DNA of 64,000 nt, taken from NCBI RefSeq assembly GCF_053078305.1, contig NZ_CP166879.1; one strand, written 5' to 3'. Shown piece by piece: positions 1,823-43,030 of the stretch (position 1 is the first letter of the stretch; each line of letters begins with the position of its first letter). Made by a program: the position numbers and the translations under genes. The notes below the pieces were generated by a model. The model was given only the letters and a program-made list of their open reading frames with translations, was not told the DNA's origin and did no database searches.

Positions 1823-2458
1823 TTACCAGCCACCACCGCCTCCGCCACCCGCGCCGCCGCCAGCACCACCACCGGAATAACTTCGCCCCAACAAACTGGT
1901 ATTGGCCCCCAGACTCAGGTGCATCTGTAATGAGAACAAAACGCCACTACGGGCAATTTCCGGGGCGCTAACAGCCGCTGTGAGTGATGGGGTGATACGT
2001 GCTACCCATTCTCTTCCAAGGTTTGCTGAGACTGCCCAACCTGGCAACGCGTAATCCAGTTTCCGTGTTTCCCCTTTCCGCCGCCGCCCACTGTGTGTTG
2101 CCGCCTCTTTACGCGCAAGATAGTTAACGATAGCTTCACCGTGGGCATAACGTTGCTGCCCAGTTTGGGTAAACTTTGGCAGAAAAATATACCCCATACC
2201 AGTGAGATAACCGGTCAGGAAAACAGCGCTAAAATAACCCGCTGGCATATACCAGTAAAAGAATACATCTCCGACATTGATATAGAGAGAATAAAAGGCC
2301 ACGCCTGAACAAATCAGCGGTAAAAACAAAGTGATGATTACACGATTAACGCAAGGCTTGTCATCATCGCGGGCAAACAAAAGCTCAAGGGAGCAAAATA
2401 AAAAAGGAAGAAGCCAGCAGATCATAATAAACATATCGCCCATGTAACCAGGTAAATC
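1823..2458 (-). pseudogene. yciQ: yciQ 3' fragment (C-terminal part of DUF2207-type membrane protein), separated from its 5' part by the prophage
   Basis: ORF with hydrophobic segments and Gly-rich C-terminus; the other half of the same gene is on the same strand at 41765-43030. Junction position approximate. Confidence 0.75.
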
Positions 2459-2459
2459 A

Positions 2460-2616
2460 TTTGATACCGACAAGGGTTTTAGTGAAAGGAGGTGAAATCA
2501 CCTGTAAGATACTGAAATAAAACAGGTGATCGATGATTCTGGAGGTTGTTTAGTTTTGATACTGATTAAATAAAATCCGGTATAAAATTAAGGTATCGGC
2601 AACAAATTTGATACTG
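2460..2616. repeat. left-end transposase-binding repeats (attL-like), copies of GATAC(C/T)G / CGGTATC
   Basis: Seen at 2460-2470, 2555-2566, 2592-2599 (inverted) and 2607-2616; same motif clustered at the right end. Confidence 0.6.
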
Positions 2617-2747
2617 CACATACTGCTTATGGACGTTTTTAAAAGTACTTAAAATGTCTTTTATGCTAAAAAGTTTATATCAATATCGATCTGGTCACAA
2701 ATCAAGTTGAAAGTGCTCGCTAAGTGCATAGCCTGGGCTTCATGGGG

Positions 2748-3266
2748 TTACGCTTTGGCTTCTTTATGGGTTAAATTGAAATGATGCTCCTTGGTTTCAT
2801 CTCCCTCGAAAATCTCTCTAACCTTTTGATCTGATAAATTATTAAGGCTCAATGCTGCCAGGCGTCGAATACCTGTTAAAGCGATCAACTCTTGATTCTC
2901 TTGATTGCAGAATTCCAGCAATTTTTCTACCCCTTTCCTTCTCAAGGTGTAAATAACTAATTCTTGCTCTTCTTGGCTCAAAGTGTCGATGAGTTCGAGC
3001 AACTCGCTATTGCCACCGTTCTTTTGAGGGGGCTGGTGTTTTATTTCTGCACTACCTGTAATGATGGAAACAACATGTGCAGGTAAGTCGCTTAAACGGT
3101 AGGCAAATGCTCTCCCTCTGATACCAGGTGTAGTTACCGAACGTTTTTCCCATCCTTCATTTTTTGCTCGTTTATGAAGCCCAGCCAGAGATGAAGGAAG
3201 ACCTCCAACCCCCAACAAGTCACTGGCAAGGATCCATTCTTGGTCAAGGATCATATCAAACTCCAT
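2748..3266 (-). CDS. Mu c-like repressor
   Basis: Leftward 172 aa ORF at the left end; its N-terminal motif DLxGxGGLPSSLAGLHKRAKNEGW is shared with the transposase N-terminus (DLPSSLAGLHKKAKREAW), as in Mu c and A. Confidence 0.75.
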   Translation of the reverse strand: MEFDMILDQEWILASDLLGVGGLPSSLAGLHKRAKNEGWEKRSVTTPGIRGRAFAYRLSDLPAHVVSIITGSAEIKHQPPQKNGGNSELLELIDTLSQEEQELVIYTLRRKGVEKLLEFCNQENQELIALTGIRRLAALSLNNLSDQKVREIFEGDETKEHHFNLTHKEAKA

Positions 3267-3483
3267 TTGATATTAACTTTTGTTTATATCTTTTATGCGG
3301 TTTATTTCAAAAATAACTCAATAAAAAACAAATAGATACAGAGCAAATTTAAAAATTTGAAATTAACCAGTTGATATTTACTAAGTTAATATCTAACATA
3401 TCAAACATACACTAGTGAGTAACTCAATAGAGTAGCACACATGAGTAATAAAGTTTGCCATAGAAAGTACACAGGGGGCCATT
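3267..3483. promoter_or_regulatory. divergent early promoter/operator region between repressor and ner
   Basis: AT-rich 217 bp intergenic region with reiterated TTGATAT(T)TAC / TTAATATCTAAC / ATATCAAAC half-sites. Confidence 0.5.
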
Positions 3484-3729
3484 GTGAGTCTTATTGAAGA
3501 TTGGTCTTCCGCCGATATAAAGGCAGCCTTAGAAAAACGCGATACCAATTTGTCACGTTTATCAAGGGAAAATAATTTGCAGCCTAGGACTTTGGGTAAT
3601 GCTTTGCGAGTTCCCTACCCTAAAGGTGAAAAGATAATTGCTAGGGCTATAGGTGTAGAGCCACAGGTTATTTGGCCTACTAGATATGAACGACGTGCGC
3701 GGAGGAAATATGTGGGTTGCAATGACTGA
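3484..3729 (+). CDS. ner: Ner-like DNA-binding regulator
   Basis: 81 aa ORF resembling recalled Mu Ner (…LSRLSR…TLGNAL…PKGEKIIA…EPQVIWPTRY), first rightward gene. Confidence 0.8.
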   Translation: MSLIEDWSSADIKAALEKRDTNLSRLSRENNLQPRTLGNALRVPYPKGEKIIARAIGVEPQVIWPTRYERRARRKYVGCND

Positions 3730-5794
3730 ATTGATTTCATTCAGTGACCTACCTAGTTCTTTGGCAGGTCTGCACAAAAAAGCAAAGAGGGAAGCGTGGA
3801 AAACGCGGCTAAAACCAGGGGTAAAAGGGAAAGTTTTAGAGTGTGAAATAGGAGCTTTGCCTTTAACTGTTCAGCAGGCAGTACGCGAACGCCATGCCCT
3901 GCAACTGATGACGCAAAAAGCCGATGAATCACCGGCTCCGGTGGTGACAAAGGCCAGACGCTCACCTGCCGTGGTTGATGCGGTGGAGGCATATCGCGGA
4001 TCACCCCAACTGATGGTCGAACGCCTCAATGCCCTGACTGAAAATCAGCGCCAGGTGGCTGATGCACGAATCGCGATCGTCAGCGAAGTTCTGAAAGTCG
4101 CGCAACAACCTGGTTTCAGCTGTGCGAAGGCTATCCGGTTTATCGTTGACAACCTGGCACGTTCGCAGTTGGACGAGCGCATTGTGGCAATGGTTGAGAC
4201 GGCGAACGCCAAAAAGGGAAACAGCCGCGCGTTAAGTGAAATCACGCTGAAACGCTGGATTGCGGCCTTTAACAAGGCGCAGAACGCCGCTGAACGCCTG
4301 CTTTTACTGGCACCGGGTAAGCGCCAGGAAATAAAAGCCGAAGATATTAACTGGCTGCCCGAATTTCTGGCGCAGTATCGCCAGTCAAACGGCCGACCAA
4401 TGACCGAGGCTTACGAGGATTTTGTCGCTGAATGGCAGCACCGGCACGCCGATGAGCCTTATATGCTCGATATCATGCCGTCTTATGACACCATTCGCCG
4501 CGCAATGAAGAAACTGCCGGAAGTGGTGAAACAAAAAGGCCGGGTGACCGGCAGTGAATACCGCCAGCTTGAGGGATTCACGCGCCGCGACTGGTCAAAA
4601 ATGCCGGTGAATTATGTCTGGATTGGTGACGGTCACGGCATGAAGCTGAAATGCGCACACCCGGTTCACGGTCGGCCATTTGCACCGGAAGTGACCTTTG
4701 TTATCGACGGTGGCACGCGCTTTGTGGTGGGCTGGAGCCTTGACCTGGCTGAAAATGTTTTCGCCGTAGCCGGTGCCATACAGCACGGCATTCGCCATCA
4801 CGGCAAACCGTTTCTGTATTACTCGGATAACGGCTCCGGGGAAACCGCCGACATCCTGGATAAGGAGGTTGTGGGGATACTGCCGCGACTGGGGATTAAT
4901 CACCCGACCGGGATTGCCGGTAATCCGCAGGGACGAGGCATTATCGAACGGCTTAACCGCACATTACCGATGCGCATAGCCCGTAAATACCGCACCTATT
5001 TCGGGAAAGGTGCAGATCGCGAGACGTTACGCAAAACCAACCGCGATTTACGCTCGGCATTTACTGCCCTGCAACAGGGCAAACGGCTGAACGCCCGGCA
5101 GCAGTCAGCGATGCGTGATTTACCGTCCTGGTCTGAACTGATTGATGCCATTCGTGACGGTGTTGAGTGGTACAACAACCGGCCGCACGATGAATTACCG
5201 GTGAAGCCGAACGGCAAGCATTACAGCCCGGCGGAGTTCAGAAAAAAACGCCTGGCGGAAGAGGACACGGAAATTGAATGGCTGTCCGATGTTGAGCTGC
5301 GGGATATGTTCCGGCCGATGGTGGAACGCCCTGTAAGACGCTGTGAAATACGCTGGCTGAATAATATTTACTACGCGCCCGAGCTGCGTGACGAGCATGG
5401 TCGTAAGGTGCTTATCAGCTATGACATTCATGATGCCGAACGAATTACCGTACGTCGCCTGGATGGCAGCGTGATTTGCGAGGCGGTATGGGACGGTAAT
5501 AAACGCGAAGCCTTCCCGGTTAGCGCGGAATACTACAAACAGCAGCAACGCCTTAAAGGCATGCGTAAACGCGCAGAGGAAAAAATCCGTGATGCCGAGG
5601 ATGAGGTTGTCAACGTGCTGGAGCACAAGCCGCAGGAGCCCTGGCTGGAAAACATATACCGCCCTGTGGGTAATACGGTGACCGTTCAGCAACCGGTCGC
5701 TGACGATGAACCTGATGAAGAATACGAGCGTAATTTCCAGCGGGGATTGCAGTTGCTGGAAGCGAAATTAAAAGAAAATGACCCGCTGGCCTGA
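3710..5794 (+). CDS. Mu-type DDE transposase A
   Basis: ~700 aa ORF with repressor-like N-terminal DNA-binding domain; GGAGG at 3701-3705 favours the ATG at 3710 over the in-frame ATG at 3686. Confidence 0.85.
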   Translation: MWVAMTELISFSDLPSSLAGLHKKAKREAWKTRLKPGVKGKVLECEIGALPLTVQQAVRERHALQLMTQKADESPAPVVTKARRSPAVVDAVEAYRGSPQLMVERLNALTENQRQVADARIAIVSEVLKVAQQPGFSCAKAIRFIVDNLARSQLDERIVAMVETANAKKGNSRALSEITLKRWIAAFNKAQNAAERLLLLAPGKRQEIKAEDINWLPEFLAQYRQSNGRPMTEAYEDFVAEWQHRHADEPYMLDIMPSYDTIRRAMKKLPEVVKQKGRVTGSEYRQLEGFTRRDWSKMPVNYVWIGDGHGMKLKCAHPVHGRPFAPEVTFVIDGGTRFVVGWSLDLAENVFAVAGAIQHGIRHHGKPFLYYSDNGSGETADILDKEVVGILPRLGINHPTGIAGNPQGRGIIERLNRTLPMRIARKYRTYFGKGADRETLRKTNRDLRSAFTALQQGKRLNARQQSAMRDLPSWSELIDAIRDGVEWYNNRPHDELPVKPNGKHYSPAEFRKKRLAEEDTEIEWLSDVELRDMFRPMVERPVRRCEIRWLNNIYYAPELRDEHGRKVLISYDIHDAERITVRRLDGSVICEAVWDGNKREAFPVSAEYYKQQQRLKGMRKRAEEKIRDAEDEVVNVLEHKPQEPWLENIYRPVGNTVTVQQPVADDEPDEEYERNFQRGLQLLEAKLKENDPLA

Positions 5795-41652: not shown

Positions 41653-41710
41653 GCGCTTAAAAACTCATTCTAAAACTCAAAAGAAAAGCGCCGATTTAGT
41701 ATCAAATAAG

Positions 41711-41764
41711 TTGCGTATCGGCGTTTTTCAGCGGTATCAAATGAAATGCAAATCGGTATCAAAA
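41711..41764. repeat. right-end transposase-binding repeats (attR-like)
   Basis: CGTATCGG (41714-41721), GCGGTATCAAA (41731-41741), TCGGTATCAAA (41753-41763), inverted relative to the left-end copies. Confidence 0.6.
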
Positions 41765-43030
41765 AAATCGCCGCGCTATACCCACCAGACTCATTCCTGC
41801 CCAGCCTACAGGACTCAGGTTACCGTAAAGAATGACCGCCAATATTGCCAGTCCACCCCATTGCAAAAAAGTATCAGGCCGGTAAAACGAAGACTTTTTA
41901 CGCGGCAGATAAAATTTCTGCATCCGTAAAAATGCCCTGCGTAAGACTCTGTTGCGTCTCCCCGTAAGAACGACCTTATCGCCTTTACGAAATAACGCTT
42001 CCAGTAATAACTGCTCTGCGGGCAGTAATACCTCATTATTTCTGGTCGCGCCTTCATTAACACGAATCAGGATTTGCTGGTTCTTATCATACTGATCTTC
42101 CAGATGAATTTTTCCTTTCACAATCAGATTTACGATATCGGCACAAAACCCTTTATCGTCGTAAACCAGCTTCGCATCGAGACGTAACATGCCGGGCGTG
42201 TAATCTGGCGGAATGACATCGGTTTCAATCACATCTACCGGCGTAAATTGCGGCCTGCGCTTCCAGAGATATAACCATCCACAAACCAGGAATAGACACG
42301 GAAACCAAATTAACAACGATGACGTGGAGGGTAAAAGAAGATGGCTGAAAATATTCGTCGTTTGTGGAGCCGGGGCATTGCTAAGTAACGAGTGAGGCCA
42401 ACGGTAGAGGACCGTGAAATCTTCACGATAAAACGGATCGCTGGATTCAATTCTTCCGTCCTCAAGGATGCGGCCATTTCGATATGTGTCGCCCTCTTCT
42501 CCAGTAAAGAGATCGATTTCGCTAAATGGATTACCCGCGATATCAGGGAACTTGAGTGAAAATCGGGTCTTATAGATTTCAAACGGCCAGTGGTTACCAG
42601 TCACGTTCCAGATTAACAGATCTGAATCTCCCTCACGCAGGAAAGCATTTTTAACCTGATAATGAATTTGATAATGATAGTCGCCTTGGGGCAAGAAACG
42701 TTGTTTATCGCCCACGACAATACTCATTAACCCGATATGCCAGTCAAGATGCCAGGGTTCAGGAATACCATCACGGGTTACGCCAACAATATGATAGTTC
42801 AGCAGTGCTGCGTCCCCATCAGGCTGCATCCAGAGTCGTGGTAAATCACGATAAAATCCGTGCTTAATCTGCTGATTTCGCGCCTGAAAATGAATGTTCT
42901 CTTTGATGTCGAGCACCCCATCCGGTTGCAGAGTGGCTTCAGAAGGGATCTCCGTGTTTTCTGCATAACTTAGAGATGATACAAACAGCCCTGCTATCAA
43001 CAGCAAAATGCAGCGAAACTTCCCTGCCAT
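41759..43030 (-). pseudogene. yciQ: yciQ 5' fragment (N-terminal part), truncated by the prophage; stop codon formed at the junction
   Basis: 423 aa ORF with signal peptide whose TGA (41759-41761) lies inside the phage terminal motif. Confidence 0.75.

Follow-up and report, generated by a model that had tools for sequence, protein, structure and literature searches.

A probable early control region of Mu/D108 plan, with a half-site sequence of its own, in a Mu-like Escherichia coli prophage

Introduction

What is controlled from the short, AT-rich gap between a leftward repressor gene and a rightward ner gene near the end of a transposable prophage, and by which proteins? The locus considered here lies in a 64,000-nucleotide stretch of DNA (NCBI RefSeq assembly GCF_053078305.1, contig NZ_CP166879.1), referred to below as the window. 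It carries a Mu-like prophage at 2443-41780, inserted in yciQ; the host DNA around it is E. coli chromosome with cobO, rluB and yciQ. A first-pass annotation placed the gap at 3267-3483 and read it as an early operator region with reiterated half-sites, consistent with multiple repressor operators and an IHF site controlling the lysogeny switch. In phage Mu the early operator, composed of O1-O2-O3 with an IHF site, is also the transposition enhancer, or IAS, and in both Mu and D108 the repressor and the transposase use the same region. The locus raises the question of whether its repeats are genuine binding sites and, if so, for the repressor, the transposase or Ner. Our analysis leads us to propose, with a probability of about 0.8, that the gap serves as the early control region of this transposable, Mu-like prophage, laid out on the Mu/D108 plan around a site sequence of its own.

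Results

A Mu-type arrangement of early genes

The left end of the prophage is at 2443: homology to uninterrupted yciQ extends as far as 2442, and other copies of the phage are homologous from 2443 on. From this end the genes follow the order found in Mu, with a leftward repressor, a rightward Ner, a MuA-like transposase and a MuB-like ATPase, and their positions relative to the end are nearly those in the D108 and Mu records; the operator region lies approximately 0.8-1.0 kb from the end. The flanking genes are thus those assumed by the first-pass annotation, namely a leftward PF02316 repressor and a rightward PF13693 Ner followed by MuA-like and MuB-like genes.

The c-type immunity repressor gene (2748-3254, minus strand) encodes 168 amino acids from an ATG at 3254, and its open frame continues to 3266. 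The product matches the Mu DNA-binding domain (PF02316, E=1.5e-6) and aligns over its full length with the c proteins of D108 (27% identity) and Mu (24%). The ATG at 3254 is the most likely start as judged from sequence features: a GGAG at 3264-3261 stands 6 nt upstream of it, PGAP places the start at the equivalent position in near-identical RefSeq copies, and most homologues in other species are 168-170 amino acids long. With this start the intergenic region becomes 3255-3483, so that the non-coding gap described earlier exists but is slightly larger than 3267-3483, and the gene start lies under the first of the half-sites described below, site a.

The ner gene (3484-3729, plus strand) has a GTG start with a G run at 3474-3478 as its ribosome-binding site; its product matches PF13693 (HTH_35, E=6.7e-27), and PGAP gives it the same coordinates in near-identical copies. 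For the MuA-like transposase gene (plus strand; the first ~65 codons span 3710-3904) both the relatives and PGAP indicate a start at 3710 (MWVAMTEL...), while the mechanical open reading frame begins at 3686; the start at 3710 gives a 20-nt overlap with the end of ner. The N-terminal domain encoded here is homologous to the DNA-binding domain of the repressor. An Rfam scan of 2443-3800 returned nothing meaningful.

A 13-bp unit repeated in two clusters

The A+T content of 3267-3483 is 73.3%, compared with 48.1% for the whole window, which bears out the earlier description of the gap as very AT-rich. The TTGATAT/ATATCAA motifs reported there in both orientations are also real: exact TTGATAT heptamers stand at 3267 and 3371 and an ATATCAA at 3398, with a further ATATCAA at 3253, just to the left of 3267. 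Repeat analysis shows that the heptamer is the core of a longer, 13-bp unit with the consensus ATTTGAWATTAAC, represented by ATTTGATATTAAC (3265), ATTTGAAATTAAC (3355), AGTTGATATTTAC (3369) and inverted copies. There are seven copies in two clusters, sites a-d at 3249-3312 and sites e-g at 3355-3397, and an eighth, partial copy, site h. Sites b and c form a convergent pair, as do f and g; the distances from b to f (104 bp) and from c to g (103 bp) correspond to about ten helical turns. The heptamers were therefore an incomplete guide to the sites: they are present, but the copy at 3398 belongs to the weakest and lineage-specific site, at -1.1 bits, and strong sites with a GAAAT or TAGATAT core had been missed.

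The number of sites is far above chance expectation. The degenerate pattern TKGAWATWWAC has five matches in the 64 kb against 0.42 expected, four of them within 3267-3381. A 15-column weight matrix was built from the relatives' sites only, independently of the window, and used to score ~128,000 positions; its four top scores in the 64-kb window fall at 3265, 3355, 3369 and 3383 (sites b, e, f and g), while site d ranks 7th, site c 15th and site a 21st. Seven sites of at least 9 bits are packed within 150 bp, whereas any other 160-bp stretch holds two at most. None of 2000 dinucleotide-preserving shuffles of 3247-3412 reached the observed counts, and hits of at least 13 bits averaged 0.08 per shuffle compared with 4 observed; AT-richness alone therefore does not explain the sites.

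The fifth-best matrix hit in the window, TATTGATATAAACTT at 2671-2685 (minus strand; 16.2 bits), sits in the interval that separates the 3' end of the repressor gene from the left-end sites; we rejected it as a further operator site on finding that it is not conserved in relatives. A pattern for sites f and g with 19 specified bases gave 22 matches in species-representative genomes, all in unrelated AT-rich genomes and attributable to chance; none of the 22 adjoins a homologue of the repressor, ner or transposase genes.

Architecture of the left and right clusters

Site a, GTTTGATATGATC (3249-3261, minus strand), is a weak half-site of 9.5 bits that overlaps the repressor start codon and the spacer following its Shine-Dalgarno sequence. 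It is invariant in all relatives, a conservation confounded by the coding and translation signals (start codon, ribosome-binding site) that overlap it. Site b, ATTTGATATTAAC (3265-3277, plus strand), is the best match to the consensus and the top hit in the window at 22.9 bits, and is kept in register among the relatives. Site c (reverse complement AAAAGATATAAAC; 3282-3294, minus strand; 11.1 bits) converges on site b, and its ATATC core occupies the same place in relatives, with a b-c spacing of 20-22. Site d (reverse complement TTTTGAAATAAAC; 3300-3312, minus strand; 13.0 bits) appears in relatives as the near-perfect copies TTTTGATATTAAC or TTTTGAAATTAAC.

Across a variable, A-rich spacer (3313-3354), the right cluster opens with the conserved site e, ATTTGAAATTAAC (3355-3367, plus strand; 21.8 bits), and site f, AGTTGATATTTAC (3369-3381, plus strand; 20.4 bits), which contains the -35 hexamer of a predicted early promoter. 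Site g follows in the opposite orientation (reverse complement GTTAGATATTAAC; 3385-3397, minus strand; 18.9 bits). The segments TTGATATTT of site f and AGTTAATATCTAA of site g are invariant across the aligned sequences, and the two sites together form the palindrome GATATTTACT-A-AGTTAATATC (3373-3393), part of an inverted repeat that is 90% complementary and situated between the -35 and -10 hexamers. The partial copy h, CATATCAAAC (3394-3406, minus strand), is identical to the 5' part of site a, the two being linked by a 10-nt direct repeat (3252-3261 and 3397-3406), and it spans both the -10 hexamer and the predicted early start. None of the Salmonella, Shigella or other E. coli relatives has site h, which is confined to the lineage of the window.

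The sites are conserved where the surrounding DNA is not

Homologues of the repressor with 56-68% identity occur in Shigella sonnei, E. coli and Salmonella enterica. The comparison covered seven homologue loci, three E. coli variants (99.6, 94.5 and 76% DNA identity) and three viral contigs. Every locus has divergent repressor and ner genes, and sites a-g keep their order, orientation and spacing throughout (a-b 12, b-d 39-40, d-e 51-52, e-f 14 and f-g 20), including in 10 relatives of E. coli, Shigella and Salmonella origin with repressors 56-68% identical. Identity to the window is 77-85% at the sites and 45-52% in inter-site DNA (Fisher p=6e-6 and 1e-3 in two lineages); the site columns were partly set on the alignment used for this test, which introduces some circularity, and the sites had first been seen as internal repeats. 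The spacer at 3313-3354 is 45-62% identical to that of relatives. In the 94.5% variant, inter-site or spacer DNA accounts for 12 of the 15 differences and the site cores for none. The N-terminal DNA-binding domain of the repressor is much better conserved than the remainder of the protein, which fits the conserved site sequence.

An extended e-f-g pattern proved specific, being found in 8 viral contigs. Four of these were checked (three new loci and one of five found before), and in all four the ner and transposase genes adjoin the sites; the repressor gene is alongside in three, and in the fourth the contig breaks off within the operator region. In the other four contigs the repressor gene was found by a protein-based search. 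The protein-based locus search of viral contigs yielded near-identical copies only.

Conservation of the motifs among related prophages, which the first-pass annotation had named as the check on its reading, is thus what we find: seven sites stay in register even though the repressors are only 56-68% identical and the intervening DNA has diverged. This favors a repressor-operator reading over the possibility that the repeats are a by-product of AT-rich promoter DNA, rich in TTGATA as -35-like hexamers and TATCAA as IHF-like cores. TTGATA does come close to the consensus -35 hexamer, and its complement gives the IHF core; two half-sites together make one perfect IHF match, and the region is 73% A+T. 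We nevertheless regard this origin as very improbable, since the observed site count was not reached in any of the local shuffles, conservation extends over 13 positions including a TAAC part foreign to both the -35 and the IHF consensus, an IHF match with no more than one mismatch arises from only one of the seven sites, and the equally AT-rich spacer is not conserved as the sites are.

Variation in the region is greatest in the spacer at 3313-3354. Of the 15 differences in the 94.5% variant, most are found there or between sites c and d, and 3407-3500 is identical, a distribution that suggests recombination or relaxed constraint confined to the spacer.

Two candidate IHF sites

The IHF site of the first-pass annotation is plausible on the sequence, with two candidates that leave its position ambiguous. 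The first, AAACAAATAGATA (3326-3338, plus strand), lies in the spacer and has two mismatches to the consensus WATCAANNNNTTR. At the same alignment columns seven relatives have one mismatch, and the CAA and the central T are invariant; a conserved CAA-N4-TTR element is present in the spacer at a Mu-like position, its center ~74 bp upstream of the predicted transcript start and near the Mu geometry. The second candidate, TATCAACTGGTTA (3364-3376, minus strand), is a perfect match to the consensus at the junction of sites e and f, where it overlaps the -35 hexamer. It has no mismatch in the window or in two further loci (L007 and L008) and one mismatch in the Salmonella relatives, and may be a by-product of the half-site sequence.

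A predicted early promoter beneath the right cluster

The predicted early promoter, which resembles Pe of Mu, is TTGATA (3371-3376)-17-TAACAT (3394-3399), on the plus strand at 3371-3399 with a predicted start at ~3406. It is the only plus-strand sigma-70-like match in 2443-3800, it faces ner, and it stands at the same alignment column in 8 of 8 aligned sequences. As a positive control, the same simple scan finds the annotated Pe of Mu with the same score of 9/12. Site f contains the -35 hexamer, the promoter spacer is occupied by the f/g palindrome, and sites g and h reach the -10 hexamer, so that one operator cluster overlaps the promoter; a protein bound to f, g and h would be expected from this placement to exclude RNA polymerase. 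With conserved sites whose right cluster overlaps a promoter kept in every aligned sequence, the proposal of multiple repressor operators is supported at the level of sequence.

A promoter for the repressor (Pc) was not found in a lenient minus-strand scan across the alignment, a scan that also misses the Pc of Mu. The candidate TTGTTA-17-GATATT over site d was rejected: it is matched in seven relatives and has no match in the window. A second minus-strand candidate sits on the start codon and is not proposed as a promoter.

A probable Ner operator downstream of the early promoter

Downstream of the predicted early promoter, an imperfect dyad GTGAGTAAC-N8-GTAGCACAC (3415-3440) aligns with the dyad CCGTGAGCTAC-N8-GTAGCTCACGG of D108, which we take to be the binding site of D108 Ner. 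The Ner proteins of the two phages are 56% identical. The dyad is perfect in D108 and symmetric at 6 of 9 positions in the window, and TGAGTAACTC in the dyad region is invariant among relatives. It occupies about +10 to +35 of the predicted early transcript, and we consider it a probable Ner operator downstream of Pe, which, together with the enhancer role discussed below, adds to what the first-pass annotation proposed.

This dyad also bears on whether the 13-mers themselves are binding sites of the Cro-like Ner protein and not of the c repressor. The ner gene lies directly downstream, and Ner binds the DNA of this region in Mu and D108; yet the dyad at 3415-3440 offers Ner a separate site, in alignment with the D108 dyad taken as the Ner operator and in the presence of a Ner protein 56% identical to that of D108, and the 13-mer is unlike the dyad, its resemblance being to the TTGAAATCA-type repeats found between c and ner in D108. 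There is accordingly very little to recommend Ner as the ligand of the 13-mers.

Other features of the ner leader are a GAGTA present three times at 13-bp intervals (3417, 3430 and 3443) and, downstream of the dyad, AGTTTGCCA (3451-3459), which is invariant in all relatives. They may represent additional contacts for Ner, the repressor promoter that the scan did not find, or an element of the mRNA leader.

Repressor and transposase share a recognition motif

Residues 11-65 of the repressor are 42% identical to the N-terminus of the transposase (55 residues, E=4e-12), and the corresponding identity is 41% for the Mu pair and 58% for the D108 pair. The segment LPSSLAGLHK(K/R)AK is common to repressor and transposase in the lineage of the window only. 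In a joint alignment the recognition-helix segment reads SLAGLHK(K/R)AK in the window and its relatives, ATNITRKA in D108 and AGV(H/I)Y(R/V)A in Mu, and it co-varies between repressor and transposase in each of the three lineages. The shared, lineage-specific motif implies that the 13-mers probably double as a transposition enhancer, as far as sequence comparison can indicate.

The exchangeable nature of this unit is seen in a heteroimmune Mu-like phage, LC727895 (L001, 3251-4521), which lies inside an Stx1a phage. It is ~97% identical to the window over the first 88 bp and 97.6% identical from 3872 onward, and unrelated over 2531-3871; the 13-mer motif is missing from it. The exchangeable module at 2531-3871 comprises c, the sites, ner and the first ~54 codons of A, the pattern of exchange also known from the classical comparison of Mu with D108. 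Of 5,426 complete E. coli genomes, 13 carry the immunity module, most of them from Shiga-toxin-producing strains; the right end of the phage occurs in 231 genomes. These counts suggest mosaic exchange, with different immunity regions carried on a shared Mu-like backbone. An identity with prophage Sp18 of Sakai was not established; none of the carriers listed among these 13 complete genomes is named Sakai.

The LC727895 repressor is a hybrid, with a weakly HTH_3-like N-terminus and a C-terminal half 40% identical to residues 88-162 of the window repressor; its transposase retains a Mu-type N-terminal domain with a different recognition helix, and the N-termini of these two proteins are apparently not homologous.

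The 13-mers could in principle serve the transposase only, or the repressor only. The first alternative holds that they are enhancer sites for the transposase N-terminal domain and that the repressor acts elsewhere or otherwise. That domain is of the Mu enhancer-binding type (PF02316), the sites lie ~0.8-0.96 kb from the left end as the enhancer of Mu does, and the LC727895 pair, in which the transposase keeps the Mu-type domain and the repressor has another DNA-binding domain, indicates that the two functions can be uncoupled. We judge it improbable here all the same: the window repressor and the transposase have this domain and a recognition-helix motif in common, the strongest sites lie exactly on the early promoter with a palindrome between its -35 and -10 hexamers, a placement needed for repression and not for an enhancer, and both proteins use one region in Mu and D108. 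The Mu region has been labelled operator/enhancer (Saha et al., 2013; PMC3820752).

The prophage ends

The right terminus of the prophage, ...GCGCTATA, is the same in four independent insertions that have different flanking DNA; the end therefore finishes in TA, compared with CA in Mu. The target duplication is 4 bp (CCCA) rather than 5, and the depositors of LC727895 likewise annotated a 4-bp duplication for that related phage. Three sites of the form TTTGATAC(C/T)G are present at each end (2457-2620 and 41695-41768), the outermost beginning 17 nt from the terminus, and these are presumably end-binding sites of the transposase. They share TTTGATA with the operator half-site. The likeness of end site and operator (TTTGATAC and TTTGATAT) was rejected as a conserved property, as relatives with the same operator carry other end motifs, such as TTCAAGATAA.

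Discussion

Our analysis suggests a model for the early control region of this prophage in which the repressor, the transposase and Ner would each act through DNA sites in this region. The c repressor, through its Mu-type winged-helix N-terminal domain, would bind 13-bp half-sites ATTTGAWATTAAC arranged in two clusters ~104 bp apart. When bound to the right cluster (sites e, f and g and the partial site h; 3355-3406) it would exclude RNA polymerase from TTGATA-17-TAACAT, and this block of the early promoter would silence ner, A, B and the lytic and transposition program. The left cluster (sites a-d; 3249-3312), lying across the 5' end of the repressor gene, probably cooperates with the right cluster, perhaps by looping, over the bendable A-rich spacer, in which an IHF site may be present; it would probably also mediate negative autoregulation of the repressor. 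Should the early promoter fire, Ner is predicted to bind the D108-like dyad at 3415-3440 and to damp transcription. The transposase, whose N-terminal domain bears the recognition motif of the repressor, would use the same 13-mers as an enhancer, and the repressor could then block the enhancer as well as the promoter.

An arrangement more tightly integrated than that of Mu can also be envisaged. Apart from the shared 13-mers, the IHF match at the e/f junction, conserved in all relatives with 0-1 mismatch, lies over the -35 hexamer, so that IHF, repressor, transposase and polymerase would compete for the same 30 bp; the -10 hexamer might further overlap, on the opposite strand, that of a leftward repressor promoter (TAACATA, 3394-3400), giving an exclusive, face-to-face switch. 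We consider this elaboration unlikely.

No paper on the operators of this phage was found in the literature, and on present sequence evidence we regard the region as the known Mu/D108 operator-enhancer design in an immunity type not previously described. A region of this kind is what a specialist would expect at this position, and our understanding of Mu-type switches is unchanged by it. What the analysis contributes is a definition of the operator sequence and layout for a rare immunity type with relatives in Salmonella and Shigella, a repressor/operator pair distinct from those of Mu and D108, and a map, open to testing, of the phages expected to be co-immune. It also adds a further natural case in which repressor, transposase domain and DNA sites co-vary as a swappable module.

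The divergent repressor and anti-repressor genes, with multiple operators over an early promoter, invite comparison with the tripartite operator of lambda (OR1-3, CI and Cro). A lambda-type CI/Cro operator was rejected: the window repressor carries only PF02316, with neither an HTH_3 (XRE) domain nor a LexA-like S24 peptidase domain. The sites differ as well, being oriented 13-mers in mixed orientations in place of three 17-bp palindromes, and the region in the window probably also serves transposition.

The comparisons with D108 and Mu draw on GenBank records and sequences and on PMC3820752. D108 has nearly the same gene layout, with c at 340-864 and ner from 1050, compared with 306-812 and 1042 here in phage coordinates; the Ner-type dyads of the two phages are homologous and similarly placed, their repressors align over the whole length (27% identity), and the D108 repeats TGAAATCA/TGATTTCA share a TGAAAT core with the half-site of the window. 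Outside this core the half-sites diverge, and the dyad that is perfect in D108 is imperfect here. The recognition helices, ATNITRKA in D108 and SLAGLHK(K/R)AK here, lead us to expect that the two phages are heteroimmune.

With Mu the resemblance is one of design. In both phages the region lies between a leftward c and a rightward ner, ~0.9 kb from the left end, and contains reiterated half-sites in two modules (113 bp apart in Mu and ~104 bp here), the left overlapping the start of c and the right overlapping Pe, predicted here, between or over its hexamers; between the modules lies an IHF site in Mu and a candidate IHF-type element in the window. In both phages the N-termini of repressor and transposase are ~41-42% identical. 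The site sequence itself is unrelated, with ATTTGAWATTAAC here and CTTTTCAGTAATTAT-type repeats in Mu, the repressors are only 24% identical, and the IHF match that is perfect in the spacer of Mu has two mismatches in that of the window. Neither a third operator nor a repressor promoter was found in the window, and its probable Ner site resembles that of D108 and not that of Mu.
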